A stretch of DNA of 48,754 nucleotides from an uncultured Bifidobacteriaceae bacterium (GTDB lineage Bacteria > Acidobacteriota > Vicinamibacteria > Vicinamibacterales > UBA2999), in NCBI GenBank assembly GCA_964526235.1, contig CAZGLC010000004.1:1-48754 (forward strand), written 5' to 3'. Below are positions 24,409 to 45,560 of this stretch, in pieces. The position numbers and the translations under genes are program-made. The notes under the pieces are model-generated. The model saw nothing but the letters and a program-made list of their open reading frames with translations, made no database searches and was not told where the DNA came from. Position 1 is the stretch's first letter. The number at the start of each line of letters is the position of its first letter.

Positions 24409-24810
24409 CTACCGCGGGCGGCTGCGCAGCCGTGGGCTGTTGCGGACCTGTTCGAACGCGAACCCGTCCGCGGGGCGGTCGAGCCGCTCGACATACAACT
24501 TGCGCGCCTCGAGCCGCGCCGGGCTGCCGACGACGACGATCCGGTCGCCCGCCTTGAAGGTGGTCTCGGTGATGCCGATGTCCGCCAGCTCCCGTCGGTT
24601 ATCCAATTCGAAGTACCACTTCTCGGCGGTCCCGCCGCGACGGACTTCTACAATCATGTACGGATGCGGGTTGACGTACTGATATTGCGCGATGGTCCCT
24701 TCGACGGTAACAGGCTGGGCGGTGTCGTAGACGCCGGAAATCGAGTGGTGCGCCAGAGCCGACGGACATGCCGTCAGAACGAACGCTCCTGAAACGAGCC
24801 AGCGCATCAT
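24409..24810 (-). CDS. DUF6152-like small secreted protein (copy 1)
   Basis: The signal peptide ends PSALA, followed by HHSISGVYD. The motifs VEGTI..YQYVNPHPYMIVEV and KAGDRIVVVG match the family. An AGGAG SD lies 6 nt upstream. Confidence 0.7.
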   Translation of the reverse strand: MMRWLVSGAFVLTACPSALAHHSISGVYDTAQPVTVEGTIAQYQYVNPHPYMIVEVRRGGTAEKWYFELDNRRELADIGITETTFKAGDRIVVVGSPARLEARKLYVERLDRPADGFAFEQVRNSPRLRSRPR

Positions 24811-24864
24811 AGCAATCTCCTACGGAGAACACGATAGCACCGATCGGTAGTAGACTCACGCGCT

Positions 24865-25641
24865 ATGCCATCGCTCATTCTCGGACTTCTCCTGGTGCTG
24901 GTCCTTCCGCTGCAGAGCGCCGATCTGGCGCCCACCGGCACGCTTCGCGCGTCGTTCATCGAGAACAACCCCAACCAGGGGCGGGTCGACGCGACGACCA
25001 AGGCGATCACCGGACCCGCGGCCGATCTGGTCCGCGAGCTGGCGCGCCGGCTGGGCGTGAAGTACGAGATCACGCCGCTGCCGTCGGCGGGTGCCGTCCT
25101 TGAAAGCGTGCGGAGCGGAAAAGTCGACATCGGGTTCCTCGCCTACGAAGCGGACCGCGCCACGCAGGTGGATTACGCCGACGACTATTCAATAACCGGC
25201 AGCACCTATGCCGTCCGCGGCGATTCCAGCCTCGAGCGGTCGGCCGACGTCGACCGCGCTGGCGTCACGGTGGCGGCCATCCGCGGACAGAGCCCGGAGG
25301 TCTATCTGCGGGAGCATCTGAAAGCCGCGCGGCTCAACTCGCTGCCGACGGCGCCGCCGAACGCGGAGCTGGCGAAGATGCTGCTCGGCGGTCAGGCCGA
25401 CGCGGTGGGCGCCAACCGCACGCGGATGGAGGAGCTCGTCCGCGAGTTCCCGACGCTTCGCGTGCTGCCCGACGACTTCACGCAGACGACGCAAGCGATT
25501 GTCGTCGCGAAGGGGAAGGCCTCGCAGGTGGCATATCTGAATCGGTTCCTGGTGGAGGCGCGCGGCTCAGGATTCGTGAAGGCGTCGCTCGCGAAGGCGA
25601 ATCTGGTGGGCGTCGACGTGGCGCCGCCGACGAAGCGCTAA
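24865..25641 (+). CDS. Family-3 (amino-acid-type) periplasmic substrate-binding protein, orphan
   Basis: The protein has a signal peptide. The motifs G..DIGF........R...VDY and V.A..G have an SBP_bac_3-like layout. No ABC permease or ATPase gene lies nearby. Confidence 0.75.
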   Translation: MPSLILGLLLVLVLPLQSADLAPTGTLRASFIENNPNQGRVDATTKAITGPAADLVRELARRLGVKYEITPLPSAGAVLESVRSGKVDIGFLAYEADRATQVDYADDYSITGSTYAVRGDSSLERSADVDRAGVTVAAIRGQSPEVYLREHLKAARLNSLPTAPPNAELAKMLLGGQADAVGANRTRMEELVREFPTLRVLPDDFTQTTQAIVVAKGKASQVAYLNRFLVEARGSGFVKASLAKANLVGVDVAPPTKR

Positions 25642-25669
25642 TGTATATTCACCCGCGCGGAGGAGTGTC

Positions 25670-26986
25670 ATGAATAAAACGGTCACCGTGCTGTTGGCGC
25701 TGGCGATCGGTCTTGCCGCCGGTATTCCCCTGGGCAGCCGCCTGATGTCACCGGGCGCGGAAGCCGAAGGCGCGGCAGCCGCCGCGTCGGCCGCCGCTGT
25801 GGCCGAGGCGATCGGCGCGCAGGATGTCTCCGGTCCCTACGACGTGGCGGAAGGGTGGCCGAAGGATCTCGCCACGCTCCCCGGCCACGAGACGTGGACC
25901 TACGGCGGCGCGCGCGGGATCTTCGCCGAGAGCCCCAACCGGGTGTACCTGCTCGGCGGCGGCGAACTGCCGAACCTGAAGCGGCCGCCGGTGAAGCGCT
26001 ATCCGGAGATCGGGCCGAACGTGCAGTTCCCGGTCGGCGGCGTGCCGTGGCGCAACGCCAACCAGGCGACGCCGCCCGGAGCCGGCGGATCGGGACAGGA
26101 TCCGGCGAAGGGGATGGACATCTGGCGCGGCAACGAGCCGCCGTACCGCGAGCTCGGCGTCGACGCCCGCTGGGAGCACTCGGTGGTTGTCGTCAACGCC
26201 CAGGGCGACATCCTCGAAGGGTGGACGCAGTGGGACAAGATGTTCAAGCGCCCGCACGCGGTCTACGTCAGCCCGTACGACGCCGAAAAGCACGTCTGGA
26301 TCGTCGACGATCACACGCACGCGATCTACAAGTTCACCAACGACGGTAAGCAGCTCGTCCAGACGATCGGCACGCCGAACGTGTCGGGCGCCGACGGCAC
26401 CCACTTCAACCGCCCGACGTTCATGGCGTGGCTGCCGGACGGCACCTTCTTCGTGGCCGACGGCTACAACGGCACGCGCGTCGCCAAGTTCGACGCGAGC
26501 GGCAAATTCCTCATGGACTGGGGCCAGCGCGGGGAGTCGGGCAAGGAGACGCGCCCCGGCTACTTCAACAACGTGCACGGCATCGCCGTCGACGTCCCGA
26601 GCCGGCGGGTGTTCGTGAACGATCGCGACAACCATCGCATCCAGATCTTCGACGAGAACGGCAAGTACCTGTCCGAGTGGAAGATCAACGTCAGTCCCTC
26701 CAGCCTCCACATGGTGGAGATCGGCGAGGACGGGACGCTGGCAACCTTCGACCGCAACACGCACAAGATGCTGAAGTACACGCTCGACGGGAAGCTGATC
26801 TTCTCGTGGGGCACGATCGGCGACTTCCCGGGCACCGTGTGGGGCGTGCACGGCATCAGCACCGACCGCGACGGCAACCTGTATGTCGCGGAGGTCGACT
26901 CGGGCCGCTTCCAGAAGTTCACGCCGCGGGCCGGAGCCAATCCCGCGTATCTGATCGGCAAGCCGGTGAAGGCGGTGTGGGAATAG
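25670..26986 (+). CDS. NHL-repeat beta-propeller protein (peptidylglycine alpha-hydroxyglycine lyase-like)
   Basis: The protein has a signal/anchor. NHL-type repeats include FFVADGYNGTRVAKFDASGKF, VFVNDRDNHRIQIFDENGKY and LYVAEVDSGRFQKF. Confidence 0.8.
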   Translation: MNKTVTVLLALAIGLAAGIPLGSRLMSPGAEAEGAAAAASAAAVAEAIGAQDVSGPYDVAEGWPKDLATLPGHETWTYGGARGIFAESPNRVYLLGGGELPNLKRPPVKRYPEIGPNVQFPVGGVPWRNANQATPPGAGGSGQDPAKGMDIWRGNEPPYRELGVDARWEHSVVVVNAQGDILEGWTQWDKMFKRPHAVYVSPYDAEKHVWIVDDHTHAIYKFTNDGKQLVQTIGTPNVSGADGTHFNRPTFMAWLPDGTFFVADGYNGTRVAKFDASGKFLMDWGQRGESGKETRPGYFNNVHGIAVDVPSRRVFVNDRDNHRIQIFDENGKYLSEWKINVSPSSLHMVEIGEDGTLATFDRNTHKMLKYTLDGKLIFSWGTIGDFPGTVWGVHGISTDRDGNLYVAEVDSGRFQKFTPRAGANPAYLIGKPVKAVWE

Positions 26987-26996
26987 ACAGGTAAGC

Positions 26997-27113
26997 CGGG
27001 ATCCGGGATCCGGGATCCGGGATGCGGGATCCGTGGTTCAAACGGTAGACGAGCCTCGCACAGCGAACGTCGAACTTGGAACCCGGATCCCGGATCCCCG
27101 GTCCCGGATCCCG
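26997..27113. repeat. Inverted pair of 7-nt tandem arrays: (CGGGATC)x5 - 50-nt spacer - (CCCGGAT)x4.5
   Basis: The left arm spans 26997-27031 as five units, the fourth being CGGGATG. The right arm spans 27082-27113 as CCCGGAT, CCCGGAT, CCCCGGT, CCCGGAT, CCCG. The arms are reverse complements of each other. The left arm carries five GGG tracts with 4-nt loops. Confidence 0.85.
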
Positions 27114-28502
27114 AGCGTCCGCCTGCTCCTCGTCGTCGCGATCGGGGTCCTCATCTGGCTCCTGCCGCGCCCCGATGCCGTCGATCCCCGCGCCTGGCGT
27201 CTCCTGGCCATCTTTGTCGCGACCATCGTCGGCCTTATCGCCAAGCCGCTGCCGATTGGCGCCGTGGCGTTCGTCGGCATCGCCGCGACGCTGGCGACGA
27301 ACACGCTGACGCTGCAGGAGGCGCTGAGCGGCTTCACGAACGGTCCGCTCTGGCTCGTCATGTCGGCGTTCTTTCTGGCGTCCGGCTTCATCCGTACCGG
27401 GCTCGGCGAGCGCATCGCATACGTCCTGGTGTCGCTCTTCGGCCGGCGCACGCTGGGCCTGGGTTACAGCTTCGTCGCCTCCGATCTCGTGCTGGCGCCG
27501 ATGATTCCCGCCAACACGGCGCGCGCCGGCGGCGTCATCTTCCCGATTCTGCAGTCGCTGGCCCGGACGGTGGTGGCCGGAGAGTCGTCCGATGCGCGCC
27601 GCACGCGCGCGTTTCTCACGCTGGCGGCGTATAACGCCACGGTGATTACGAGCGCCATGTTCGTGACGGCGATGGTCGCGAACCCGCTCATCGTGCAGCT
27701 CGCCGCCGGCCACGGCATCACCTTGACGTGGACCAGCTGGGCGATCGCAGCCTCCGTGCCGGGTGTCATCAGCCTCATCGTGGTGCCGCCGATCATCTAC
27801 GCGCTGACGGCACGCGGTACGGCTCTGCAGGCCGACGCGCCCGAAGCGGCGCGGGCCGCGCTCGGGCGACTCGGACCGATGAAGCCGAGCGAGCGGGTCA
27901 TGGCGACGGTCTCGATCGTGCTGCTGGCGGCATGGATTGCCGGCTCGTCGATCGGGCTCGATCCCACCGCCGCGGCGCTGATGGCGGTGGCGGCGCTCCT
28001 CGTCACCGGGGTGCTCGGGTGGGACGCGGTGGCCGGCGATCAGGAGGCGTGGAACACGTTCGTCTGGTTCGCGACGCTCGTGATGATGGCGAGCTATCTC
28101 GGCGAGCTGGGGCTCATCGCGTGGTTCACCGCGCAGGTGCAGCCGCTCGTCGGCGGCGTCGGCTGGGTAACCGGCTTCAGCGGCCTGGTGTTCGTGTACT
28201 TCTACGTGCACTACTTCTTTGCGAGCATGACGGCGCACATCAGCGCCATGTACGCGCCGTTCCTGGCGGTGGCGCTGGCGCTCGGCACGCCGCCCGTGTT
28301 CGCCGCGCTGGTCCTTGCCTTCGCCAGCAATCTCTTCGCGAGCCTCACACACTACGGCACGGCGGCGGCGCCGATCCTCTTCAGCGGGGGACACGTGCCG
28401 CTCGGCACCTGGTGGCGCGTCGGCCTGATCGTGAGCGTCGTCAATATCGCGATCTGGGTGGGCGTCGGCGGGGCGTGGTGGAGGCTACTCGGGTTGTGGT
28501 AG
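27033..28502 (+). CDS. DASS family (divalent anion:Na+ symporter / 2-oxoglutarate-malate translocator-like) anion permease
   Basis: The 489-aa polytopic protein has P.P......AWRLLAIFVATIVGLI..PLP.GA and PANTARAGGVIFPI motifs. The only canonical in-frame start upstream of TM1 is GTG 27033. That start puts the right-hand heptamer array into the N-terminal tail (GTRIPDPRSRIP), so the start is uncertain. Confidence 0.85.
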   Translation: MVQTVDEPRTANVELGTRIPDPRSRIPSVRLLLVVAIGVLIWLLPRPDAVDPRAWRLLAIFVATIVGLIAKPLPIGAVAFVGIAATLATNTLTLQEALSGFTNGPLWLVMSAFFLASGFIRTGLGERIAYVLVSLFGRRTLGLGYSFVASDLVLAPMIPANTARAGGVIFPILQSLARTVVAGESSDARRTRAFLTLAAYNATVITSAMFVTAMVANPLIVQLAAGHGITLTWTSWAIAASVPGVISLIVVPPIIYALTARGTALQADAPEAARAALGRLGPMKPSERVMATVSIVLLAAWIAGSSIGLDPTAAALMAVAALLVTGVLGWDAVAGDQEAWNTFVWFATLVMMASYLGELGLIAWFTAQVQPLVGGVGWVTGFSGLVFVYFYVHYFFASMTAHISAMYAPFLAVALALGTPPVFAALVLAFASNLFASLTHYGTAAAPILFSGGHVPLGTWWRVGLIVSVVNIAIWVGVGGAWWRLLGLW

Positions 28503-29315
28503 GTTCCCTCGTCGTCGAGAACTGACAGCTTCGATCTCGAAGAGTCGAGGCCACAGCTTTCCCGTAACGAAGAGGCGATTGGTGGCCGCATCGTAAGCGA
28601 TGCCGTTCAGGACGGCCTCGGGATCGAGCCGGTATCCTGTCGCCATCAAACCACTCAGATCAATCCAACGAAGTACTCGCCCTGACTCCGGCGAAATCCT
28701 CGCAATTCGGTCCGTATGCCAGATGTTGGCGTACACCTCACCTCGGATGTACTCGAGTTCGTTCAGATCCCGAACGGGAGCTCCGCCATCGGTGACCGTG
28801 ACACGTCTGACTTCGCGAAACGTGTCCGGATGTAGGAAACGGAGCTGGTCGGTTCCGTCGCTGAGAATGAACCCCTGTTGATCTCGAGTCAGGCCCCAAC
28901 CCTCGCCGGCATATCGAAAGGTCCGACGCATGGAAAAAGTCGCCATGTCGTAAACGAAGGCTATGTTGGACTGCCAGGTCAGTTGCACAAGCTGACCGTT
29001 CCATTCCGCAAGGCCTTCGGCGAAATACGCCGCGTCCACTCGGTGCTGCTGCACGACTTCACCCGTTTCAAGCTGGACCTTTCGCAGCGTCGACTGACCG
29101 TTACGCCCGGTACTTTCGAACAAGAACCCGTTGCGGTAAATCAGCCCCTGCGTGTACGCCGACGTATCGTGCGGATAGCTCTTCACCACCCGGAACGTGT
29201 CCATGGATGCACGCGCTTGAGCAAACAGCCCAGTCCCGTCGCTAGAGACGAGCCATGACGCGGCGCCGGCCAGTGCAAGTGTTAACAGGCCGCGTCTGGC
29301 CGGTGAGATCGTCAT
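28485..29315 (-). CDS. Glutaminyl-peptide cyclotransferase (bacterial/plant beta-propeller type), secreted
   Basis: The protein has a signal peptide. The motifs YTQGL, FESTG, GEGWGLT and LNELEYIRGEVYANIW match the family. Three hand-counted 60-nt lines give 52-63 % G+C, which is A/T-richer than most of the window. Confidence 0.85.
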   Translation of the reverse strand: MTISPARRGLLTLALAGAASWLVSSDGTGLFAQARASMDTFRVVKSYPHDTSAYTQGLIYRNGFLFESTGRNGQSTLRKVQLETGEVVQQHRVDAAYFAEGLAEWNGQLVQLTWQSNIAFVYDMATFSMRRTFRYAGEGWGLTRDQQGFILSDGTDQLRFLHPDTFREVRRVTVTDGGAPVRDLNELEYIRGEVYANIWHTDRIARISPESGRVLRWIDLSGLMATGYRLDPEAVLNGIAYDAATNRLFVTGKLWPRLFEIEAVSSRRRGNLPQPE

Positions 29316-29722: not shown

Positions 29723-32629
29723 TCAGAAGGTGTAAGAAATGCCCCACTCCAGGACGCGCGGCGGCACGATCAAGGTCGCCGTATTGAACCGCGGGCCCGA
29801 CAACTGCTGCACCGTCAGCACGGTCGCCTTGTTCAGCACGTTGTAGAGATTCAACCGCGCCACCAACTGGTGGCCGCTCGCCAGGTCGAAGCGCTTTTCG
29901 CCGCGCAGGTCGAGCAGGTTGACGCTGTCCAGGCGCCGCGTCCCGATCGGCTCCACGTTGACGGTGAGCGTCGGAATCTGGCGGCCGCCGCCGAACTCCA
30001 CGCGCCGCGCCCACGGCAGGCCGCTCTCGAGGCTGTAGTTCGCCGATGCCAGGATCCCGTAGCGCATCAGATACGACCCGCCGGCGCGGAAGATCCACTC
30101 CCACGTGTTGTCGCTGGCGAAGATCTCCGCGTTCGGATCCTGGGTGTTGATGAACCCTGTCGTGTTGTTGCCGACGTTCGTCACGAGCGGGATGTTCTTC
30201 TTTGTGGCGCTGTACGAGACGCGCGCCTGCCAGTTGTTGGCGTAGCGCCGCGCCACCTGCCACTCGATCGTCTTGAAGGTCGAGTTCGCCGTGTCGTCGT
30301 TGACAACCCAGGGCCGCTGGAACGCGGCGCCCGCGAGCGACGCGGGAAAGTCGTAGTACGTGATCAGGGAGCCCGGGTCGTCGGCGGTGCCGGGCACGCC
30401 GTCAGGGCCGGGATCGCGGTTCGTGATCGGGATGTTGTACACCGCGTACGGGCGCAGCGAGTTCGCCAGCCGCCACTGGTTCTTCGCCTCGGCGTAGACG
30501 CCGGTGACGCGCACCGCCCAGTCGGCCGTCAGCTGCTGCTCGAGCGACAGCAGCAGCTCGTCCTGGTAGCGCTGCGTCGTGTCCGGATTGATCAACCCGC
30601 CGCCGAACGCCGCCCCGATGCCGCGCAAGGTGCGGTCGATGAAGTCGGGGCCGTTCGGGTCGAGGTTGACCTCGCCCGGGTTGTAGTCCCTGTTTCCGTT
30701 GAGGTCGCGCCAGCGGTAGCGCGCCTGCGAGATGGTGTTCTGGTTCGCGATCTGCAGGTCGTCGGAGCTGCGCATGTGGTAGTAGCGGGCCCAACCGCCC
30801 TTGACCACCATCCGGGCGTTCCCCAGCACGTCGTACGCCGCATGGAGGCGCGGCGCGAGGCTCGTGAAGGCAGGCATCTCCTGCCGCTCGTAGCACTCGG
30901 CCGGGAACGTGATGTGTGACGGCGCCTCGGCCGCCTCGCGGCACTGCTCGGGAATCACGGCGGTCTCGTGGGCGAAGCGCGCCCCGAGATTCAGCGTCAG
31001 CCGGCGGGCGATCGTCCAGCTGTCCTGCAGATACAGGTGGTTGAACTGCATCGGCGTGTCGGGCGAGACCGGCGAGTTGAGCAGGATGACCCGATCCGCG
31101 ACGCCGCGGTTGAACTCGAGCGTGTAGTTGCCGATCGGACCGCGCGGCAGCTGGCTCCGCTCCGCGCGCGCCAGGTGCACGTCGAAGCCGGTTTTGACCT
31201 CGTGGCGGCCGGCCGCGCCGCCCGCATTGAACCAGGTGACGTTGCCGCGCGCCTGCCAGCGGTCGATGTTGTTGCGCGAGCCGGTCTCGGCCGCCGCGCC
31301 CCACTGGCGCAGCGTCGTGCGATCCCGCGCGCCGGGCCGCCTGGCCTGGCCGAAGTCGGAGTCGCCTGAACGGACGTAGAAGCTGCCGACGAGGACCGAC
31401 AGCACGAGCCGATCGTTCGGGACCGTCTGGTACTCGCTCTTCCAGACGCCGTCAGCCCCCGGGTTCCGGTAGGTGCGCGTTTCCCATAGCGCGACGGCGC
31501 TGCCGCCCCGCTCGCCGAACCGCCAGTTCGGCTGCGCGAAACCGATGATCTTGTTCGACGGATTGAACTGATACGTCACCTTCGCCGTGATGAACCGCGT
31601 GCGCTCGGTGCCGACGCAGGGCCGGTCGGAGAGCGGTCCGTCCGGATCGTTGTGGTTCACCGGAACAAAGCAGTCGATGATGTTGTCGTGCTGCCGGCGC
31701 TGGCGCGAGGCGCCGAAGAACCAGAGCTTGTCGCGAATCAGCCTGCCGCCGAGCTCGCCGCTCCAGTCGTCGCGCAGCCGCAGCTCGTCGCCCTCCGAGA
31801 TCCCCTGGCGGAGCAAGGTGGGTGTGAGGTTGTTCGACCTGAGATTGTCGCTCGTGCGCGCGTAGTACATCTGTCCGTGGAAATCGTTGCCGCCGCTCTT
31901 GACGACCCCGTTGATCGCCAGGCCGCGGGTCGGCGTGGCCGCGCTGTGGCCCATCACCTGGACCGTCGCCTCTTCCAGCGTCGCGTAGTCGAGGTAGCTG
32001 CCGCTCGGGTTCGATGCCGGGCCCTGCATGATGACGTCTTCGATACCCTGCCACGACTCGCCGAGCTGCCCCATGGTGTGAAACCGTGGCGACTCGTTGA
32101 AGCCGCTGCCGCCGACGTCGAGCCGCACGCTCGTCCGCGCGCTCGGCGTCTGAATCATCAGCGCGTTGAAGCTGTTCCGGCTCGTCGGCAGCAGCTCCAG
32201 CGTCTCGCGCGTCAGCTGCGTCGTCGGCGTCGTGGACGCGACGTCGACGAGCGGCGCGGCGCCCGAGACGGTGACCGTCTCCTGCAGGTTGCCGACGCCC
32301 AGCGTCACGTCGAGGCGCGCGGTGAAGCCGACGGTCAGGCGCACGCCGTCGCGGCGGCTGGTCTGAAAGCCGTTCAGCTCGTAGCTGATCGTATAGGTCC
32401 CGATCGGCAGCGGCGTGAGGCGATAGTCGCCGCGTTCGTCGGTGACGGCGCTGACCTCCGGAACCTGGAGGGCCGGGCTGGTCGCGGTGACGGTGACGCC
32501 GGGCAGGACGGCGCCGCTCTCGTCGGTCACCTGTCCCGTGATGGTGGCGGCCGTGCCCGCCTGCCGGGCGATGGCGTCGGTGGCGGCGAACGCCAAGAGC
32601 AGAGCCGCCGCGACGATCGTTACGCGCAT
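29723..32629 (-). CDS. TonB-dependent receptor with N-terminal CarboxypepD_reg-like domain (TBDR-1)
   Basis: The start is ATG 32629, with GGAGG 5 nt upstream. The signal peptide is MRVTIVAAALLLAFAATDAIA. The N-terminal segment reads ITGQVTDESGAVLPGVTVTATS....TDERGDYRL. It is 968 aa with a C-terminal aromatic residue (...WGISYTF). The track ORF extension to 33715 is rejected. Confidence 0.9.
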   Translation of the reverse strand: MRVTIVAAALLLAFAATDAIARQAGTAATITGQVTDESGAVLPGVTVTATSPALQVPEVSAVTDERGDYRLTPLPIGTYTISYELNGFQTSRRDGVRLTVGFTARLDVTLGVGNLQETVTVSGAAPLVDVASTTPTTQLTRETLELLPTSRNSFNALMIQTPSARTSVRLDVGGSGFNESPRFHTMGQLGESWQGIEDVIMQGPASNPSGSYLDYATLEEATVQVMGHSAATPTRGLAINGVVKSGGNDFHGQMYYARTSDNLRSNNLTPTLLRQGISEGDELRLRDDWSGELGGRLIRDKLWFFGASRQRRQHDNIIDCFVPVNHNDPDGPLSDRPCVGTERTRFITAKVTYQFNPSNKIIGFAQPNWRFGERGGSAVALWETRTYRNPGADGVWKSEYQTVPNDRLVLSVLVGSFYVRSGDSDFGQARRPGARDRTTLRQWGAAAETGSRNNIDRWQARGNVTWFNAGGAAGRHEVKTGFDVHLARAERSQLPRGPIGNYTLEFNRGVADRVILLNSPVSPDTPMQFNHLYLQDSWTIARRLTLNLGARFAHETAVIPEQCREAAEAPSHITFPAECYERQEMPAFTSLAPRLHAAYDVLGNARMVVKGGWARYYHMRSSDDLQIANQNTISQARYRWRDLNGNRDYNPGEVNLDPNGPDFIDRTLRGIGAAFGGGLINPDTTQRYQDELLLSLEQQLTADWAVRVTGVYAEAKNQWRLANSLRPYAVYNIPITNRDPGPDGVPGTADDPGSLITYYDFPASLAGAAFQRPWVVNDDTANSTFKTIEWQVARRYANNWQARVSYSATKKNIPLVTNVGNNTTGFINTQDPNAEIFASDNTWEWIFRAGGSYLMRYGILASANYSLESGLPWARRVEFGGGRQIPTLTVNVEPIGTRRLDSVNLLDLRGEKRFDLASGHQLVARLNLYNVLNKATVLTVQQLSGPRFNTATLIVPPRVLEWGISYTF

Positions 32630-32752
32630 AGCACCTCCGTGCTGAAAAACGGCGCGGGTTGCGTGAGCACGCGGAGTGTATGCGCGCGCGTTGGTGTTGC
32701 GCAACTGCCGACTGCTTGGCGATCGACTCTTCCCTGTGACAGACTTTCGGAC

Positions 32753-33700
32753 GTGCACCGCAGACATCCGGCGCTCGTGCTGCTCGTCGCCGTCGGCGCG
32801 AGCGCGTGCGGCGCCGGCAGCCCCGAGTCGCGCCGCGTCGTGACGCTCGTGACGCATTCGAGCCCCGGCGGCGGGAGCGACGTCTTCCTGCGCGAGATGA
32901 TTCCGCACCTCACCCGCGTGATGGAGGGCACCTTCATCGTCCAGAACATCCAGGGCGGCAGCGGCGCCAAGGCGATGGCGGCCGTCGCGAGCGCACGCTC
33001 GGACGGCACCCTCGTCTATGCGACGACGCCGACGTTTATCTATACGTCGCTGCTGAGCGCTCCGTCGGCGCGGTACACGGATCTCGAACCGCTGGTAAAT
33101 CTGTTCTTCGATCCCGAGGTGCTGTACACGGCAGCCGACTCGAAGTTCGCGACGCTCGGCGACGTGCTCGCCCATGCACGGACCGCCCGCGGCCGCTGGG
33201 GCGCCGCCAATCCGGCCTCGCTCGAGCGGCAGGTGATGGAGCAGCTCAAGCAGAAGGCGGGCGTCGCGCCGGCCATCACCACGTTCGAGGGCGGTGGCGA
33301 CATGCTGATCAACGTGCTGAACCACACGCTCGACATCGGCGTCGGGGAGCTGCAGGAGATCCGGGCGCAGCTCGACGTCGGCCGCCTGCGTCTGCTCGCC
33401 GTCGTCGGCGAGGAGCGGCTGCCGCAGTTTCCGGATGTCCCGACGGTGAAGGAGCAGGGAATCGACCTGGCCGTGCGCAAATTCCGCGGGCTCGCGGGGC
33501 CGAAAGGGATGCCGCCGGAGGCGATCGCCGCCTGGGAGGCCGCGATTCCGAAGCTGCTCGACGACCCTGCGTACCGCAAGCTCTACACCGACAACAGCCT
33601 GCAGCCGGGCTTCATGCCGCACGCCGAATACGTCGCCTTCATGCGTGACTTCGGCGCCCAGACCGAAGCGTTCCTGAAGCAGTCCGGCGTCATTCAGTGA
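32753..33700 (+). CDS. tctC: Tripartite tricarboxylate transporter substrate-binding protein (Bug/TctC family), lipoprotein
   Basis: The GTG start lies within track ORF 31652-33700. The lipobox is VGASA-C. The motifs GGSGAKAMAAVA, FEGGGD and P.VPT..EqG are typical of the Bug family. Confidence 0.85.
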   Translation: MHRRHPALVLLVAVGASACGAGSPESRRVVTLVTHSSPGGGSDVFLREMIPHLTRVMEGTFIVQNIQGGSGAKAMAAVASARSDGTLVYATTPTFIYTSLLSAPSARYTDLEPLVNLFFDPEVLYTAADSKFATLGDVLAHARTARGRWGAANPASLERQVMEQLKQKAGVAPAITTFEGGGDMLINVLNHTLDIGVGELQEIRAQLDVGRLRLLAVVGEERLPQFPDVPTVKEQGIDLAVRKFRGLAGPKGMPPEAIAAWEAAIPKLLDDPAYRKLYTDNSLQPGFMPHAEYVAFMRDFGAQTEAFLKQSGVIQ

Positions 33701-34203
33701 ATCGGGATCTCGCATTCGGCGCCTCGGGCGTGGTCATCGCCGGCGGCTACTACAGGCTCGCCACCTCCATTCCCGACAGCGCGCTCGCGGATGCCGTGGG
33801 CCCGCAGGGGCTGCCAGTCGCGTACGCCGCCGTCCTGGCGCTGCTGTCCCTGATCCTCATCGCACGGTCGCTCCGACCCTCGAACGCAGAACCCGGATCC
33901 CGGATCCCGGATCCCGGATCCCACATCCCGGATCCCGGATCCCGGATCCCGCATCCCGGATCCCGTCTGCTTCGGGTCGCGGGCATGCTCGCCTTCGGGG
34001 CCCTGTACATCGTCCTGGTCCCCTGGCTCGGCTACACCGCGTCGCTCGCCGGACTGCTCTTCGCCGTCACGTGGTACCTGGGCGGCACCGTTCACCGATC
34101 GATGGCCGTCGTCGCAGTGTCCGGCGCCGTTGTCCTCTGGCTGCTCTTCGTGCGGCTGCTCGGCATCCCGCATCCGGCGGGCATCTGGGCCGGGCTCTTC
34201 TGA
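33697..34203 (+). CDS. tctB: Tripartite tricarboxylate transporter small membrane subunit TctB, carrying an in-frame heptamer-array insert
   Basis: A GTGA overlap couples it to tctC, and the gene lies between tctC and tctA. It has four hydrophobic segments. The loop after the second segment is encoded by the array at 33892-33965. Confidence 0.75.
   Translation: MNRDLAFGASGVVIAGGYYRLATSIPDSALADAVGPQGLPVAYAAVLALLSLILIARSLRPSNAEPGSRIPDPGSHIPDPGSRIPHPGSRLLRVAGMLAFGALYIVLVPWLGYTASLAGLLFAVTWYLGGTVHRSMAVVAVSGAVVLWLLFVRLLGIPHPAGIWAGLF
33892..33965. repeat. Tandem heptamer array (CCCGGAT), about 10.5 units, inside tctB
   Basis: The units start at 33892, 33899, 33906, 33913, 33920 (CCCACAT), 33927, 33934, 33941, 33948 (CCCGCAT) and 33955, with a partial CCCG at 33962-33965. 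The array is translated as PGSRIPDPGSHIPDPGSRIPHPGS. Confidence 0.9.
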
Positions 34204-34208
34204 CCGCC

Positions 34209-37836: not shown

Positions 37837-38253
37837 TCAGGCCGGGCTCACGCCCTCACGCCGTGCGGCCTCGAGCAGACGGTCGTCAAACGCGACAATC
37901 GTCAGCTCCTCGCCGAGCTCGTCGCGCAAGTAAAGGCAGCTGGCGAGCTGAATGGCATCGCCGGCGCGCAAGGGGTGCTTGTGCAACAGAGCGCGTGCCC
38001 GCGCGCTGATGGCCGACGTCAGTTCGACGACCAGGATTGCCGGGAAATCGACCGCGAGCGCGGCAAGCGCACGATTCCGCTCCGCCGTCGAGAATGCGCC
38101 TTCCCGCGCGCGCCGCTCCAATGCCGAGGCGACCTCCACCTCGGAGAGCCGGCTCGTCGCCGGAAGATCCGCAGAGAGAAGACGGCGAACCCTCATGCTC
38201 CCTGCTTCGCGTATGTACCGCTTGACAAGGGCGCTGGCGTCGAAATACCGCAT
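37837..38253 (-). CDS. vapC: PIN-domain type II toxin VapC
   Basis: The N-terminus MRYFDASALVKRY carries the first acidic residue, and later acidic motifs are D.IQLA and FDDRL. It is 138 aa and shares an ATGA overlap with the upstream antitoxin. Confidence 0.85.
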   Translation of the reverse strand: MRYFDASALVKRYIREAGSMRVRRLLSADLPATSRLSEVEVASALERRAREGAFSTAERNRALAALAVDFPAILVVELTSAISARARALLHKHPLRAGDAIQLASCLYLRDELGEELTIVAFDDRLLEAARREGVSPA

Positions 38254-38540
38254 CAGAACCGGTCGCTGCGATCCTCGAGAACAGCCTCGGCGACCGAGCG
38301 ACCGCGGCTTCGGACCTGGCGGAACGGCCTGAGCGCTCTGTCCGCCGTGCGGGTGACTGCGCCGAGGGCCTTCAGCTTGGCCAGCACGGCGTCCGTGTGT
38401 GTGCCGGCCTCCAACGGGCGCAGCTCGGCAACCGGCTCACCGCGGTCGGTGATGACCAGCGTCCGTCCCTGGCGCACTCGGCGGAGATAGGCGCCCAGGC
38501 GCGCCTTCAGTTCACGCGCCCCGACCAGATTGCGTTCCAT
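38253..38540 (-). CDS. Phd/YefM family antitoxin (VapB-like partner of the PIN toxin)
   Basis: The start is ATG 38540, inside track ORF 38253-38996. The sequence VGARELKARLGAYLRRVRQGRTLVITDRGEPVAEL has the Phd/YefM N-terminal pattern. Confidence 0.8.
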   Translation of the reverse strand: MERNLVGARELKARLGAYLRRVRQGRTLVITDRGEPVAELRPLEAGTHTDAVLAKLKALGAVTRTADRALRPFRQVRSRGRSVAEAVLEDRSDRF

Positions 38541-38560
38541 GTGGTCATTGTGACCACATG
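38538..38560. promoter_or_regulatory. Perfect 10-3-10 palindrome overlapping the antitoxin start codon (probable vapBC operator)
   Basis: The sequence CATGTGGTCA-ttg-TGACCACATG spans 38538-38560. Positions 38538-38540 are the ATG of the antitoxin on the minus strand. Confidence 0.6.
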
Positions 38561-38696: not shown

Positions 38697-39086
38697 ATGA
38701 AGCATCTGACATGGATCGGCCTGTGCGCGGCTGCGATCGCGCTTGGAATCGTCTCCCCGGCCTATTCGCATCACTCGCACGCGATGTTCGACCACACGAA
38801 GCCGCAGACGGTCACCGGAACGGTGAAGGAATTCCTGTTCCGCAACCCGCACGTTTATCTCTACGTCGACGTCAAGAACGACCGCGGCGACGTGGTGACC
38901 TACTGGGTCGAGATGTCGAACCTCCAGAACATGATCAAGCAGGGGATCAACCAGAACACGCTGAAGGTCGGCGACGTGGTGACCGTGACGATGCATCCGC
39001 TCAAGGACGGGCGTCCGGGCGGCAACTACGAGACGATGAAGACGGGTGACGGCCGGTCGTTCGGCCGCGAGCCGGACCTGAATTAG
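38697..39086 (+). CDS. DUF6152 family small secreted protein (copy 2)
   Basis: The signal peptide ends SPAYS, followed by HHSHAMFD. The motifs VTGTVKEFLFRNPHVYLYV, W.VEM and KVGDVVTVTMHPLKDG match the family. Confidence 0.8.
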   Translation: MKHLTWIGLCAAAIALGIVSPAYSHHSHAMFDHTKPQTVTGTVKEFLFRNPHVYLYVDVKNDRGDVVTYWVEMSNLQNMIKQGINQNTLKVGDVVTVTMHPLKDGRPGGNYETMKTGDGRSFGREPDLN

Positions 39087-39097: not shown

Positions 39098-40228
39098 ATG
39101 CACGCCATGACAACGGCCATCCGTGCCGGCGCCGCGCTCGTCGTCCTCGCGATGGCGACGCCGGCCGCCGCGCAGACCGCGCAGCGGACGATCTTCACCA
39201 CGCCCGACATTCGCCAGGATCGCGACCTCTGGACCGATCCTGCGTACTACCGCAACAACACCGTCGGCCAGCTCAGAGGCATGGCGATCGGCACCGAGCC
39301 GGGCGGCGGCTCGACGCAGCAGGCCGGCTCGCGGGTCTACGGATCGGCGGGCACGGCCAAGCCCGGCGCGCTCGATCTTTCGACGCCCTATCCGTTCAAG
39401 ACCGCGATGGAGCACTACCAGGCGTGGCTGAAAGAGGCGGGTGGCGGCACCAGACACACCGCGGCGACGATTCCCAACTGGCGCGGGCGCTGGGCGGGCG
39501 GCCCCGCGGGTCTCGGCGGCGGGCCGAATCCGGCCAGCTATGTCGCCTCACTGTTGACGCCGGCGTATCGCGAATACTTCGTGCGCGAGCTGAAGGCATA
39601 TACGGAAGGGCGCATCTGGTCGGCGGGATCGATCTGCCTGCCGGGCGGGTTCTTCGCCGCCGTCGGCGCCGAAGAGTTCATCGTGACGCCCGAACAGGTG
39701 TGGACGCTCGGGTCGTCAAACGCGCAGAACTACATCCGCTGGATCTATACCGACGGCAGCGGACACAGCCCGAAGGATGCCGAGTTCGCCAAGTGGCACG
39801 GCGAGTCGATCGGCTTCTGGAACGGCGATGCGCTGATCGTCCACACGAATCAGATCCACGGATGGAAGGGTGGGCCGTCGGAGTTCACCGACAACCTCGA
39901 GACGGTGGAGCGCTACCGGCGCGTCGGCGACCGGATCGAGGGCGAGATCACGCTGTACGACCCGGAGGTCTTCGTGCGGCCGGTGCACGCGAGGGTTCGG
40001 TACCAGCTCGACACGGAGACGCGCCTCGAGCTCAGGCCGACCTACAACACGTGCACCGACACGAACGGCCCGTCCAACAAGGTGTACATGGACGAGCGCG
40101 GCATCCTGAACGAGCGCATTCCGGGCGACCCGCTGTACTTCGACCCCACCGACCCGCGGCCGTGGCGCACGTACCTCGACGAGAGCGATCGACGGTACGA
40201 GCGGTACCGGAAATCGCAGGGGCGCTGA
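39098..40228 (+). CDS. Secreted protein of unknown function (376 aa)
   Basis: The signal peptide is MHAMTTAIRAGAALVVLAMATPAAAQ. The codon usage is G/C3-rich. It lies 11 nt after DUF6152 copy 2 and 26 nt before the hydrolase. I recognise no motif. Confidence 0.65.
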   Translation: MHAMTTAIRAGAALVVLAMATPAAAQTAQRTIFTTPDIRQDRDLWTDPAYYRNNTVGQLRGMAIGTEPGGGSTQQAGSRVYGSAGTAKPGALDLSTPYPFKTAMEHYQAWLKEAGGGTRHTAATIPNWRGRWAGGPAGLGGGPNPASYVASLLTPAYREYFVRELKAYTEGRIWSAGSICLPGGFFAAVGAEEFIVTPEQVWTLGSSNAQNYIRWIYTDGSGHSPKDAEFAKWHGESIGFWNGDALIVHTNQIHGWKGGPSEFTDNLETVERYRRVGDRIEGEITLYDPEVFVRPVHARVRYQLDTETRLELRPTYNTCTDTNGPSNKVYMDERGILNERIPGDPLYFDPTDPRPWRTYLDESDRRYERYRKSQGR

Positions 40229-40254
40229 TCGACACGGCGTCTGGAGGTGCTGAG

Positions 40255-41415
40255 ATGACTCGGCTCTTTGTGTTCGTGGCGGCGTTGGCCGGCGTCGGTT
40301 CATTGTCGATGCTGCGGGCGGCCCCCGCGGACGACCTCATCTCCGTGGACCACTACGTCCGGATGAAATCCACCGTGCCCGCGTTGGCCGGGCAGGTCGC
40401 GCACGTGTACCTGCGCGAGCGCGCCAATCCGGCGGTGCTGCTCCGCACCGCCACTCTCGCCGACCGCGTCGTCCTGTTCGTCCATGGGGCGGGTACGCCG
40501 GCCGAGGTGGCGTTCGATGTGCCGCACAGCGACTACAGCTGGATGGCGTACCTCGCCGGCGACGGCTTCGACGTCTTCTCGATGGACCAGACGGGCTACG
40601 GCCGATCCACGCGTCCGGCGCCGATGGACGACCCGTGCAATCTGTCGCGCGAGCAGCAGGCGACGCTGGTCCCCCTGCTGATCGCGGCGCCGTGCGCCCA
40701 GAGCCACGGCACCGCCCTCACGACGATGGCGACCGACTGGGACGAGATTGCGGCCGTGGTGGAGTACATCCGCGCGCTGCGCCGCGTCGAGCGCGTGGCG
40801 CTCGTCGCCTGGTCGCGCGGCGCCCCGCGTGCGGGGGGCTACGCGGCGCGCCACCCGTCCACGGTTTCGCGGCTGGTGCTGCTGGCGCCGGCCTACGATC
40901 GCTCCACGCCGGCGGCCGCCGCCGCCGCCCAGCCGGCCGCCGGAGCGGCGATGAACACGCAGTCGCGCCGGGAGTTCATGGCCAACTGGGACCGGCAGGT
41001 CGGCTGCGCGGATCAGTACGATCCCGCGGTCGCCGACGCGGTGTGGACCGAGATGCTGCGGTCGGATCCGGTTGGCGCGACGTGGGGGCCCGGCGTCCGT
41101 CGCGCGCCCAACACCACCGGCACGTGGACGCAGGCGATCGTGAGGAAGCTTGGGGTGCCCACGCTGATGGTCACGGGGGTCCACGACCGGCAGGTCCCGC
41201 CGGAACGCGTGCGGCAGCTGTACGAAGACATCGGTTCGACGGAGAAGGTCTTTGCCGATCTCGGGTGTTCGTCGCACAACGCCATGTGGGAGCGCAATCG
41301 GCTCGCGCTCTTCGAGGCGTCGCGGACGTGGCTCACGACCGGCACCGTCAACGGCATGAAGCAGGGGACGATTCGCCTCGGGTATCCCACTGCGGCGGGC
41401 ACGCCGACCAACTGA
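40255..41415 (+). CDS. Secreted alpha/beta-hydrolase fold protein
   Basis: A GGAGG lies 7 nt upstream, and the protein has a signal peptide. The HG oxyanion motif is LFVHGAG. The nucleophile-elbow-like motif is VAWSRGA. Late Asp and His candidates are VTGVHD and CSSHNAM. Confidence 0.8.
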   Translation: MTRLFVFVAALAGVGSLSMLRAAPADDLISVDHYVRMKSTVPALAGQVAHVYLRERANPAVLLRTATLADRVVLFVHGAGTPAEVAFDVPHSDYSWMAYLAGDGFDVFSMDQTGYGRSTRPAPMDDPCNLSREQQATLVPLLIAAPCAQSHGTALTTMATDWDEIAAVVEYIRALRRVERVALVAWSRGAPRAGGYAARHPSTVSRLVLLAPAYDRSTPAAAAAAQPAAGAAMNTQSRREFMANWDRQVGCADQYDPAVADAVWTEMLRSDPVGATWGPGVRRAPNTTGTWTQAIVRKLGVPTLMVTGVHDRQVPPERVRQLYEDIGSTEKVFADLGCSSHNAMWERNRLALFEASRTWLTTGTVNGMKQGTIRLGYPTAAGTPTN

Positions 41416-41428: not shown

Positions 41429-42412
41429 ATGCGCGTGACCGTGACGCTCGCACTTGCGCTCGCGGTGCTCGCCACCGCCTGCAACCCGCGCGAGTTCGCG
41501 CGCGAGCACGGCGGCATCACGCGCCTGTCGATCGCGACGGGGAACACGGGCGGCGTCTATTACCCGTACGGGGGCGGCATCGCGAAGGTCGTCAGTGAGG
41601 CCCTGCCGCGCGTGCAGGTCACCGCGGAAGTCACCGCGGCGTCGGTGGACAACCTCAAGCTCATTCAGCTCGGCAAGGTCGACATCGCCTTCGCGCTCGC
41701 CGACACGCTCGACGACGCGATCAAGGCGCGCGGTCCGTTTGCGAAGACCGGGGCGGTGCGCGCGCGGACGCTCGCGGTGCTCTATCCGAACTACACCCAT
41801 CTCGTGACCGTGGCCGGCAACGGCATCGACCGCATCGCCGATCTGAAAGGGAAGGTGGTGTCGACCGGTTCGGCCGGCAGCGGCACGGAAGTGATCGCGC
41901 TGCGAGTGCTGCGCGCCGCCGGCCTCGATCCCGATCGCGACCTCCGCCGGCAGGCGCTCTCGGTGAACGCGTCGGTGGACGCGTTGAAAGACGACAAGAT
42001 CGATGCCTTTTTCTGGAGCGGCGGCGTGCCGACCGCCTCCGTGCTCGACCTCGCCAGCACCACGGGCATCACCGCGAAGCTGATTCCCAACGACGAGGTG
42101 CTGTCGGCGCTCCAGGCCGAGTTCGGCGCGGCTTTATACCACCGCCTGGTCATGCCGAAGGGCGCGTATCCCGGGCAGGAGGCCGACGTGGCGGTCGTTG
42201 GCGTGCAGAACGCGCTCGTCGTCGATGCCGCGATGGACGAGGCGCTTGCCTACGATCTCACGCGCACGCTCTTCGAGCGGCGCGCCGACCTGGCGGCGAT
42301 CCATCCGGAGGCGCGGCTGCTCGATCCGGCACGCGCCGTCCTCGGCTCGCCCGCCGACTTCCATCCGGGCGCGATCCGCTACTACCAGGAACAGGGTGTG
42401 TGGAAACCGTAG
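41429..42412 (+). CDS. TAXI-family TRAP transporter solute receptor (lipoprotein)
   Basis: The lipobox is LATA-C. The motifs TGNTGGVYYPYGGGIA, SV.N..L...G..D.A and STGSAGSGTE are typical of TAXI proteins. Confidence 0.9.
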   Translation: MRVTVTLALALAVLATACNPREFAREHGGITRLSIATGNTGGVYYPYGGGIAKVVSEALPRVQVTAEVTAASVDNLKLIQLGKVDIAFALADTLDDAIKARGPFAKTGAVRARTLAVLYPNYTHLVTVAGNGIDRIADLKGKVVSTGSAGSGTEVIALRVLRAAGLDPDRDLRRQALSVNASVDALKDDKIDAFFWSGGVPTASVLDLASTTGITAKLIPNDEVLSALQAEFGAALYHRLVMPKGAYPGQEADVAVVGVQNALVVDAAMDEALAYDLTRTLFERRADLAAIHPEARLLDPARAVLGSPADFHPGAIRYYQEQGVWKP

Positions 42413-44364: not shown

Positions 44365-44365
44365 A

Positions 44366-44761
44366 TCAGAAGTCGGACGGCGCCGCCGCGCTGTTGCCGT
44401 CCCAGTCCTTGACCGAGCCGTCACGGGCCTTCAGGAACCCGAGCAGGCAGCCGCGCGAGCCGTCGCGCAGCGGATGGCACCGCACCTTGATCGTGTCGCC
44501 CGCCTTGATGTACTCACGGTTGACGCCGATGCGTTCGAGGCCGTTGCGACCGGTCGCTTCGAGCGCCCACATCTGCGGCTCCCCGCTCGCGTCCTTCACC
44601 TCCATGTACACCCAGGAATGCGGAACGACCAGGTGAACTTCCTTCACCACGCCGGTCATGTCCGAAAAGGTGTCCATATAGTTGCCGTGGGAATGATGCG
44701 CGGCCACCGGCAACGCGAAGAACACCGCACAGAGGATCGCGATACTGAATCGAAACTGCAT
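44366..44761 (-). CDS. DUF6152-like small secreted protein (copy 3, divergent subtype with two Cys)
   Basis: The signal peptide ends LPVAA, followed by HHSHGNY. The motifs VPHSWVYMEVKD, IKAGDTIKVRCHPLRDGSRGC are present. It is a close paralogue of copy 4. Confidence 0.75.
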   Translation of the reverse strand: MQFRFSIAILCAVFFALPVAAHHSHGNYMDTFSDMTGVVKEVHLVVPHSWVYMEVKDASGEPQMWALEATGRNGLERIGVNREYIKAGDTIKVRCHPLRDGSRGCLLGFLKARDGSVKDWDGNSAAAPSDF

Positions 44762-44858
44762 GTCAGCCTCCCAAGAACTCCTCCATATTAGCCAAGAAGG
44801 CCGCGCCGCGCTACACTGCGCCGGGCGCGCTTGACGGCCGGCGCGCGGAGGTGGGGGG

Positions 44859-45134
44859 ATGCGCCTGGGACTGATGCTGGCGGGCGTTCTGGCGATGGCG
44901 CCGGGGCCTGTCTTCGCGCAGGACTGGACTGAATTTGCGAGCCGGGAAGACCGCTTTACCTCGATCTACGTGCACGAGAACAGGTTGTACATTATGGAGG
45001 GCACCGTGCCCGACGGGATGCCGGAGCCGGGCCTCTTTCAGCAGTCGCTCGGATGGCGTGACGAGAATGGCGGCTGCATCAGATATTCCGGCATCTACCT
45101 GCACGGGGCGCCGAAGCCGGCGCGCACTCGATAG
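44859..45134 (+). CDS. Small secreted hypothetical protein
   Basis: A GGAGG lies 8 nt upstream. The signal peptide is MRLGLMLAGVLAMAPGPVFA-Q. It is 91 aa and lies between the two inverted DUF6152-like genes. Confidence 0.45.
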   Translation: MRLGLMLAGVLAMAPGPVFAQDWTEFASREDRFTSIYVHENRLYIMEGTVPDGMPEPGLFQQSLGWRDENGGCIRYSGIYLHGAPKPARTR

Positions 45135-45161
45135 ATAGATAGTGAGATAGAGGAGGACATC

Positions 45162-45560
45162 ATGCTGTTCAGACTCGCGCTCGCGTTCGTGTTCGCCGCG
45201 GCGATTGGCGTCCCCATCGCCGGGCATCACTCGCACGGCAACTACTCCGACACGTTCACCGACATCGAAGGGATCGTCAAGGAACTACACCTCGTCGTCC
45301 CGCATTCGTGGGTGTACATGGAGGTCAAGGACGCGCAGGGGCAGCCGCAGATCTGGGCGCTCGAGGCGACGGGCCGCGGCGGGCTCGAGCGGATCGGCGT
45401 CACCCGCGAGTACATCAAGGCGGGCGATCGGATCAAGGTCCGGTGCCATGTGCTGCGCGACGGCTCGCGCGGCTGTCTGCTCGGGTTCCTGAAGGCGGCC
45501 GACGGCACCGTCAAGGACTGGGACGGCGGCGCCAATACGCCGATCCCGACCGATTTCTGA
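45162..45560 (+). CDS. DUF6152-like small secreted protein (copy 4)
   Basis: An AGGAGG lies 5 nt upstream. The signal peptide ends VPIAG, followed by HHSHGNY. Across the mature part it is about four-fifths identical to copy 3, judged by eye. Confidence 0.75.
   Translation: MLFRLALAFVFAAAIGVPIAGHHSHGNYSDTFTDIEGIVKELHLVVPHSWVYMEVKDAQGQPQIWALEATGRGGLERIGVTREYIKAGDRIKVRCHVLRDGSRGCLLGFLKAADGTVKDWDGGANTPIPTDF

Follow-up and report, generated by a model that had tools for sequence, protein, structure and literature searches.

Contig CAZGLC010000004.1 was analysed from position 1 to 48,754 (the whole 48,754-nucleotide stretch is referred to as the window), which has a G+C content of 68% and its closest genomic relatives in the Vicinamibacterales (Acidobacteriota). 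It carries four genes for small secreted proteins of the family DUF6152, designated A to D, and directly after B a gene for a second secreted protein, termed the partner, whose relatives recur beside DUF6152 genes or fused to them. The features are listed below, with the slash marking the predicted signal-peptidase site and residue numbers referring to mature B.

24409-24810 (-): paralogue A, 133 aa; signal peptide residues 1-20; junction PSALA/HHSISGVYD, mature start HHSISGVYD; HHS codons 24742-24750 (-), PH codons 24664-24669 (-), Glu48 equivalent 24607-24609 (-)
38697-39086 (+): paralogue B, 129 aa; signal peptide residues 1-24; junction SPAYS/HHSHAMFD; HHS codons 38769-38777 (+), NPH at 38847-38852 (+), Glu48 at 38910-38912 (+)
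39098-40228 (+): partner protein, 376 aa, secreted; 11 nt downstream of B; family without a Pfam or NCBIfam model
44366-44761 (-): paralogue C, 131 aa; signal peptide residues 1-21; junction LPVAA/HHSHGNY; HHS codons 44690-44698
45162-45560 (+): paralogue D, 132 aa; signal peptide residues 1-21; junction VPIAG/HHSHGNY; HHS codons 45225-45233

The four open reading frames (ORFs) are present with the coordinates, the sizes of 129-133 aa and the translations given for them in an original prediction made from the sequence alone, and its family assignment holds as well, since all four match PF19649 (DUF6152) at 66.2-92.5 bits (E = 2.9e-18 to 1.8e-26), above the Pfam gathering threshold of 27 bits. 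None of the NCBIfam models matches the four paralogues, and a hidden Markov model (HMM) built from them detected no additional copy in the window. The closest pair is C and D, at 73% identity, while every other pair shares 29-34%, and the window thus holds three old DUF6152 lineages and one recent duplicate; among the Vicinamibacterales relatives, identity to B reaches 79%.

Each precursor starts with one basic residue and no acidic ones ahead of a hydrophobic core (10-residue Kyte-Doolittle maximum of 2.0-3.0), and the residues at -3/-1 (A/A in A, A/S in B, V/A in C and I/G in D) obey the -3/-1 rule in all four. With the site placed by this rule together with the family alignment, cleavage would fall directly before HHS in every copy, as predicted, and would expose His-His as the start of the mature chain. 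The four genes most likely encode periplasmic proteins with mature chains of ~105-113 residues and a predicted oligonucleotide/oligosaccharide-binding (OB) fold.

The His-His-Ser start in the window is not a chance coincidence, because it is shared across the family. When a profile of the four paralogues was searched against 1.84 billion representative proteins, 13,688 clusters at 50% identity were recovered at E <= 1e-3 and 6,262 at E <= 1e-10, distributed over the Acidobacteriota, the Gemmatimonadota and the Alpha-, Beta- and Gammaproteobacteria. HH stands right after an AxA-type site in 145 of the 150 best representatives, and is followed by Ser or Thr in 138 of the 150; in the other five the N-terminal region is missing, owing to truncation or what looks like a frameshift. 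In an alignment of 142 diverse representatives (50% clustering), residue -1 is Ala, Gly or Ser in 100% and residue -3 is mostly Ala or Val, and the mature chain begins with His1 (100%), His2 (100%) and Ser3 (94%, otherwise Ala or Gly). Further along the chain follow Tyr/Phe7 (100%), Asp8 (77%), Gly17 (93%), Asn26 (81%), Pro27 (100%), His28 (100%), Trp/Tyr45 (100%), Glu48 (97%), Gly59 (100%) and Gly68 (98%). The pattern is repeated in a further 221 sequences (non-redundant at 70%), where His1, His2 and His28 are invariant, so that the family-wide conservation on which the original prediction depended is borne out in both sets. The second conserved histidine that it had placed in an (N/V)PH motif is found in all four paralogues and is the invariant His28, and the mature chain of A contains exactly three histidines, which are the invariant three. 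His4, proposed as an additional ligand, does occur in B, C and D, but is present in only about 19-27% of the family, where it co-varies with the subfamily-specific His23 and His76, and it was rejected as a general ligand. The description of the family as uncharacterised agrees with the searched literature, in which zero papers mention "DUF6152".

An AlphaFold2 model of mature B, computed with a 134-sequence alignment, reached a mean predicted local distance difference test score (pLDDT) of 90.7 and a predicted TM-score (pTM) of 0.83. According to this model DUF6152 is a five-stranded OB fold, with b1 at 13-23, b2 at 30-36, b3 at 42-48, a helix at 52-57, b4 at 70-78 and b5 at 84-92. The mean pLDDT of the first ten residues is 73, and the model shows a turn there (4-6) and a beta-bridge (residue 7), so that the N-terminal arm is modelled as docked instead of floppy. 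His28 lies two residues ahead of b2 and b3 ends with Glu48, so that the two would face each other across the b2-b3 hairpin, whose register is supported by a D34-V42 coupling in a mean-field direct coupling analysis of our own (effective sequence number, Meff, about 210-250). Foldseek searches of the PDB with the model returned generic OB domains only (the LysRS anticodon-binding domain, Rim1/SSB and PriB, with CcmE at rank 42; best E 1.6e-3, TM-scores 0.5-0.6), none a close solved relative, and PDB searches by sequence (B) and with the DUF6152 profile gave nothing meaningful. The name "Cupredoxin-like copper-binding protein", which one homologue (P0086) bears at JGI, is an unsupported automatic label, the predicted fold being OB.

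The gene surroundings were surveyed in 80 loci (79 genomic loci and the window), in which our own crude ORF caller delimited 136 DUF6152 ORFs. The dominant neighbour cluster comprises 86 ORFs from 43 loci, always adjacent and on the same strand, with a median length of 288 aa, and includes 39098-40228. With an HMM built for this partner family, partner-like ORFs were detected in 58 of the 80 loci, and a same-strand partner lies within 300 nt of 92 of the 136 DUF6152 genes. About 28 of the 136 ORFs are fusions of 325-400 residues, in which DUF6152 invariably comes first, straight after the signal peptide, and the domain behind it belongs to the partner family (E = 1e-30 to 1e-52). The partner has no Pfam match even at E = 1, and none came from NCBIfam or from sequence and profile searches of the PDB; for the fusions, too, NCBIfam has no model, and all 638 close partner homologues are labelled "hypothetical". 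The pair is also found in a cultured organism, on a plasmid of Novosphingobium humi KACC 19094, where a GH39-like gene, the partner (WP_273620495.1, a "hypothetical protein" with a partner-HMM E of 2.5e-62), DUF6152 (WP_273620494.1, which the partner gene overlaps by 4 nt) and a TetR gene follow one another. Since the partner family has no Pfam or NCBIfam model, gene pairs and fusions together define a two-part periplasmic system, of which neither the searched papers nor Pfam, NCBIfam or the PDB yielded a description. This, the strongest signal in the gene context, had been missed by the original prediction, which did not consider 39098-40228 or the fusions. Arrays of up to five consecutive genes for signal peptide-HHS-DUF6152-partner fusions occur as well (e.g. 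L010:5980-7110 and L059:2200-7002), mostly in Rariloculaceae and other sediment Gammaproteobacteria; the loci concerned are L009, L010, L014, L022, L025, L028, L042, L044, L048, L050, L059, L061 and L064.

The importance of a free N-terminus is further suggested by four representatives with two DUF6152 domains in tandem. The internal copy of P0242 has lost HH and kept PH, those of P0275, P0287 and P0297 have kept an internal HHS and lost the PH histidine, and none of the four internal domains (0/4) retains both. Although the sample is small, the tandem and fusion patterns are those expected if the site needs the alpha-amine.

The reading preferred here, to which we give a probability of roughly 0.55, is that DUF6152 bears a histidine-brace-type metal site on an OB fold and constitutes the metal half of a two-part periplasmic module, as opposed to a homeostasis chaperone. 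In this model, signal peptidase I would remove the leader and leave His-His-Ser as the new N-terminus, upon which His1 with its free amine, His2, His28 and Glu48 would together form one mononuclear transition-metal site, with the invariant aromatic residue 45 as its cap and the docked N-terminal arm (Tyr/Phe7-Asp8) holding it in place. In most subfamilies DUF6152 would be the metal-carrying half and the secreted partner, encoded next door or fused at the C-terminus and weakly calycin-like, the other half, with which it would make contact, whereas the stand-alone subfamily of C and D travels instead with Oar-like receptors and dihaem cytochromes c. The module would probably act on, or capture, compounds imported by outer-membrane receptors by means of a redox-active metal, for which copper is the first guess, given the brace analogy and the cytochrome neighbours, followed by iron or nickel. 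A mononuclear free-amine metal site is the most economical explanation because it accounts at once for the invariant His-His, His28 and Glu48, for the capping aromatic residue and for the N-terminal position in fusions, and a plain metal-homeostasis chaperone is disfavoured because the context consists of partner genes and fusions, outer-membrane import and periplasmic electron carriers.

The partner itself allows a different view of the same residues. Its conserved features are a P-D-x3-G-x-W motif after the leader, a cysteine pair (C180/C319), R214, a G-x-S-x-G-x-W-E-G-D-x-L-V-V stretch, E271 (in E-R) and D288-P...P-W. Its AlphaFold model (pLDDT 72, pTM 0.75) has an eight-strand beta core, whose best Foldseek matches are the barrels of fatty-acid-binding proteins (FABP), cellular retinol-binding proteins (CRBP), lipocalins and avidin, all of them weak, and which may weakly be called calycin/FABP-like. 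Since the fold it weakly resembles is a small-molecule-binding one, and OB folds are classic ligand-binding modules (CcmE, a periplasmic OB protein, carries haem via a histidine), the cluster of His-His, His28, Glu48 and the aromatic residue might bind an anionic or aromatic small molecule or cofactor, such as a carboxylate, a sulfate ester, a quinone or a haem edge, with the OB domain serving as lid or adaptor for a ligand in the partner barrel. Catabolic and transport genes in the neighbourhood, for metallo-beta-lactamase (MBL)-fold and arylsulfotransferase-like proteins, pyrroloquinoline quinone (PQQ) dehydrogenases, major facilitator superfamily (MFS) transporters and tripartite ATP-independent periplasmic (TRAP) transporters, would suit such a role. 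Invariance of the first two mature residues and their strict N-terminal place in the fusions, however, point to a free amine, which is a hallmark of metal chelation, and His/His/His/Glu is a textbook set of metal ligands; we know of no precedent for an organic-ligand site made of an N-terminal His-His. A non-metal site of this kind is accordingly judged quite improbable.

Besides the partner, a Pfam census was made of the 149 nearest non-partner neighbour ORFs. MBL-fold proteins are the commonest (9 of 149; 19 loci by BLAST), ahead of Plug domains (7) and CarboxypepD_reg/Oar-like proteins (7); c-type cytochromes account for 10 (cytochrome c' 4, Cytochrom_C 3, CytoC_RC 3), DUF885 and arylsulfotransferase-like proteins for 4 each, short-chain dehydrogenases/reductases (SDR) for 3 and PQQ dehydrogenases for 2. 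The prominence of the MBL fold, which is of a di-zinc type, raises the possibility that the N-terminus works between molecules. The N-domain of TIMP is an OB fold that chelates the zinc of a protease with its free N-terminal residue, and periplasmic serralysin inhibitors use their N-terminus likewise; the His-His end of DUF6152 could by analogy enter the active site of the MBL-fold neighbour or of the partner and complete or block a metal centre there, making DUF6152 a regulator or inhibitor. Yet His28 and Glu48 are as invariant as the N-terminus, which an intramolecular site explains better, the top 50 Foldseek matches include no TIMP or NTR structure, and no conserved Cys1 or disulfide framework is present (the mature chains of A and B have no cysteine). 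With a partner devoid of metal-ligand motifs and an MBL association confined to some subfamilies, this explanation is regarded as very unlikely.

How the four window genes relate to these contexts depends on their subfamilies. The B-like subfamily (HHSxAMFD) is partner-adjacent in 8 of 9 cases, as is the "FSAEFD"-like subfamily in 33 of 34, with an MBL-fold gene within 3 kb in 15 of the 34, whereas none of the 16 genes of the CD-like subfamily (HHSHGNY) adjoins a partner; within 3 kb of these lie an outer-membrane receptor in 7 of 16 and a dihaem cytochrome c in 6 of 16. B is a member of a partner-coupled subfamily, and B with 39098-40228 is a canonical pair, whose order after an MmgE/PrpD gene and an SDR gene is common to the window and the loci L002 and L003. 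C and D are stand-alone genes, divergent from each other, and three further features adjoin A, C and D.

22785-24344 (-): hybrid histidine kinase, PAS-HisKA-HATPase-REC; 64 nt downstream of A
44859-45134 (+): 91-aa ORF between C and D; in-frame internal deletion remnant of a ~270-aa secreted family
45628-48561 (+): Oar-like TonB-dependent-type outer-membrane protein, CarboxypepD_reg and OMP_b-brl_4; recurrent neighbour of CD-like genes

D lies 67 nt upstream of the co-directional Oar-like receptor gene, and P0139, a close CD-like homologue, adjoins an Oar-like receptor in six contigs; C is convergent with a TRAP permease gene, tail to tail with a gap of 1 nt, an arrangement in which the two are not co-transcribed. 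Of the uptake-machinery adjacency originally claimed, only the link between D and its receptor recurs in relatives, while that of C amounts to convergence with the permease. The kinase fared similarly: it does stand 64 nt from A as predicted, but a metagenome scan found the pairing only in syntenic relatives that are 87-89% identical and not in one that is 40% identical, and a functional link was rejected on this ground. The kinase has no membrane or periplasmic segment, as its PAS domain begins at residue 26. Both the kinase and the TRAP links are thus weak.

The census also bears on metal trafficking, in which DUF6152 would be a periplasmic metallochaperone or capture protein that delivers copper, nickel or zinc to TonB-dependent receptors and transporters or receives the metal from them, as proposed for DUF4198, CopC/YcnI and CusF. 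The invariant His-His/His28/Glu48 set fits this equally well, as does the proximity of outer-membrane receptors to CD-like genes, D included, and CusF is itself an OB-fold metallochaperone of the periplasm. A carboxylate ligand is moreover typical of trafficking-type braces, for example Glu50 of YcnI (PMC8424229), and DUF4198 is likewise found near TonB receptors (PMC12537917). The original prediction had called for a neighbourhood census, and although outer-membrane receptors did appear among the neighbours, the metal-homeostasis families did not: no Cop, Cus, Znu, Nik or Fur-type genes for copper, zinc or nickel homeostasis are among the 25 commonest neighbour families, P-type ATPases, CopC/D and the regulators Fur/Zur/NikR/CsoR being equally missing there and from the window, where no metal-homeostasis gene was found. 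No Fur-box-like site occurs within 3 mismatches. Copy number is another point against a chaperone: the 21 kb analysed here contain 4 copies, other 12-kb loci up to 5 and single Rariloculaceae genomes at least 7-8, an expansion that would be unusual for a protein of that kind. In addition, two thirds of the genes are tied or fused to a partner that does not look metal-related. Oar-type receptors are, to our knowledge, not known as metal importers. Trafficking is on balance considered unlikely.

A more elaborate version of the preferred metal-site reading can be proposed, in which DUF6152 and the partner would be a new class of two-component, sometimes fused, periplasmic metalloenzymes, with a His-brace copper or iron centre on the OB domain, an organic substrate held in the calycin-like barrel, electrons supplied by c-type cytochromes and compounds entering via TonB-dependent or Oar-like receptors. 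This enzymatic scheme is a speculation that we rate as rather unlikely in its full form. The expansion of DUF6152 is massive in soil Acidobacteriota and sediment Gammaproteobacteria.

Several points weigh against the metal-site module as preferred here. Ahead of A/HHS, paralogue A contains a lipobox-like LTAC (residues 12-15), use of which would make A a lipoprotein and put HHS six residues away from its N-terminus; the position of this cysteine varies among the 87-89% identical orthologues of A (the same place in L086, as VAAC, and residue 8 in L087), and A/HHS is kept in them. The coupling analysis is dominated by gap-prone columns, so that it recovers the b2-b3 and b4-b5 hairpins and does not place the N-terminal arm. 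On the partner side, the alignment contains no conserved metal-ligand set, and the structural matches are weak, the best being iFABP (3akn; E = 3.6e-3, target-normalised TM-score 0.56-0.60). Three of the four window copies (A, C and D) are without a partner, the gene contexts are heterogeneous overall, and the loci of the census were sampled with sequence patterns from the window proteins, by which the census is biased.

Further observations concern the surroundings of the four genes. Between the SDR gene and B lie a PIN-domain toxin gene (37837-38253) and a gene for a 95-aa putative antitoxin (38253-38540), both on the minus strand, with a perfect-looking palindrome, ATGTGGTCATTGTGACCACAT, at the antitoxin start (~38540-38560) that overlaps a promoter-like site; the cassette looks inserted, because in L002 and L003 the SDR gene directly precedes the B orthologue. 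Downstream, B and the partner share their direction with the genes for an alpha/beta hydrolase, a TAXI binding protein and the TRAP permease, promoter and terminator scans found only weak, not decisive, terminator-like hairpins just 3' of the partner gene (40249-40297), and the TRAP genes are not conserved beside the B-partner pair at other loci.

The ORF at 44859-45134 is a deletion remnant, in which ~35 residues from the N-terminus of the ~270-aa family are followed by ~60 from the C-terminus. Full-length members (e.g. L012:4532-5350) adjoin CD-like DUF6152 genes in about 10 loci and have no Pfam or NCBIfam model, and a distant homology of this family to the partner was rejected (hhalign probability 1.1%). 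At L002:10362-11342, L003:10515-11474 and L055:6492-7451, all in Vicinamibacterales relatives, the gene immediately after a CD-like one encodes a ~320-aa dihaem cytochrome c with two CxxCH motifs; in the window the corresponding slot after D holds the Oar-like receptor gene.

Elsewhere in the window, the gene at 25670-26986 (+) encodes a weakly ScyF-like NHL-repeat protein, which scores 91 bits where the cut-off is 350; depending on the clustering, 5-11 loci, L022 and L073 among them, have such a gene no more than a few genes away from DUF6152. A glutamine cyclotransferase gene at 28485-29315 (-; Glu_cyclase_2, E = 4e-96) has a third-position G+C of 0.65, compared with about 0.85-0.93 in neighbouring genes, and may be a recent acquisition. 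The Oar-like outer-membrane protein encoded at 29723-33715 (-) is unusually long (1330 aa), with an extension of ~390 residues ahead of CarboxypepD_reg for which no family match was found. Three ORFs, at 20172-21551 (+), 21451-22905 (+) and 34071-35687 (+), are little annotated: the one of 459 aa has two RidA/L-PSP stretches, those of 484 and 538 aa have no Pfam or NCBIfam match, and the family of 34071-35687 recurs in 5 loci near B-like genes.

Among known systems, a close analogue by ligand vocabulary is YcnI (DUF1775) of Bacillus subtilis, whose "monohistidine brace" binds Cu(II) via the amine and Ndelta of the N-terminal histidine, Glu50 and Trp137 (PMC8424229). It too was a domain of unknown function until its leader-exposed conserved histidine was recognised, and His1, Glu48 and Trp/Tyr45 of DUF6152 would have counterparts in it. 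YcnI differs in its cupredoxin-like fold, its membrane tether, its place in cop-type operons (CopC/CopD, YcnK) and in having no second or third histidine, whereas DUF6152 combines a predicted OB fold with the extra invariant His2 and His28, a context free of copper genes and a dedicated or fused partner. The same discovery logic underlies DUF4198, DUF6702 and the "anglerases", secreted families with a conserved, metal-binding histidine at the N-terminus left after signal-peptide removal, found by signal-strapping, of which DUF4198 binds Ni(II) through its N-terminal histidine and His18 and occurs near TonB receptors (Nat Commun 2025, PMC12537917); that paper does not mention DUF6152. These families, all without an obligate partner family, have beta-sandwich folds in place of an OB fold and an N-terminal histidine conserved at 65-79%, as against 100% for His-His in DUF6152.

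With the canonical braces (lytic polysaccharide monooxygenases (LPMOs) of AA9-AA17, CopC and the CuB site of PmoB) DUF6152 shares a histidine at the N-terminus plus a second, distant one. Some histidine-brace proteins are redox enzymes that cytochromes or PQQ enzymes supply, which the cytochrome c and PQQ-dehydrogenase neighbours of DUF6152 echo. There is no relation to the canonical braces in sequence or fold, LPMO braces have neither carboxylate ligands nor an adjacent second histidine, and no polysaccharide-active context was found around DUF6152. The histidine-brace likeness drawn in the original prediction thus stands at the sequence level, in the histidine at the N-terminus and in the invariant PH histidine, and falls as a kinship with LPMO, CopC or PmoB; because the predicted OB fold differs and the PDB offers no sequence match, DUF6152 is to be taken as an analogue of LPMO, CopC, PmoB, YcnI and DUF4198 and not as a member of any of them. 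The ATCUN-like (amino-terminal Cu/Ni-binding) site of the original prediction has to be abandoned: such a motif needs His3, and 94% of representatives have Ser there. An Xaa-His site of the GHK type, with a free amine and His2 (100%), does fit at the sequence level, yet Xaa-His and ATCUN sites are unstructured peptide motifs, while the distant invariant His28 and Glu48 imply a folded one.

By scaffold the comparison is with CusF, a periplasmic OB-fold chaperone for Cu(I)/Ag(I), which is likewise a small five-stranded barrel, whose b2-b3 face bears the metal ligands and in which a Trp serves as the cap. CusF uses His/Met/Met ligands and no N-terminal amine and belongs to the cusCFBA operon, and DUF6152 has no conserved Met ligands; homology was rejected, as the alignment was co-linear but not significant (hhalign probability 8.7%). 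TIMP/NTR domains have the OB fold in common with DUF6152, which does not have their conserved Cys1/disulfide framework.

Secreted metal proteins that carry a histidine at the N-terminus are already established, and what DUF6152 would add is the OB scaffold, the doubly invariant His-His and an undescribed partner with Rosetta-stone fusions. The metal-site hypothesis is cheaply testable, with proteins of ~105 residues, cultured hosts (Novosphingobium humi, Cellvibrio) and clear point mutants, in a system that is abundant in poorly cultured soil and sediment bacteria, beside outer-membrane receptors and cytochromes. If the site does bind metal, a very large family (>13,000 clusters at 50% identity) would join the secreted "N-terminal histidine" metalloproteins, as the first with such a site on an OB fold and the first in which an adjacent second histidine is equally conserved.

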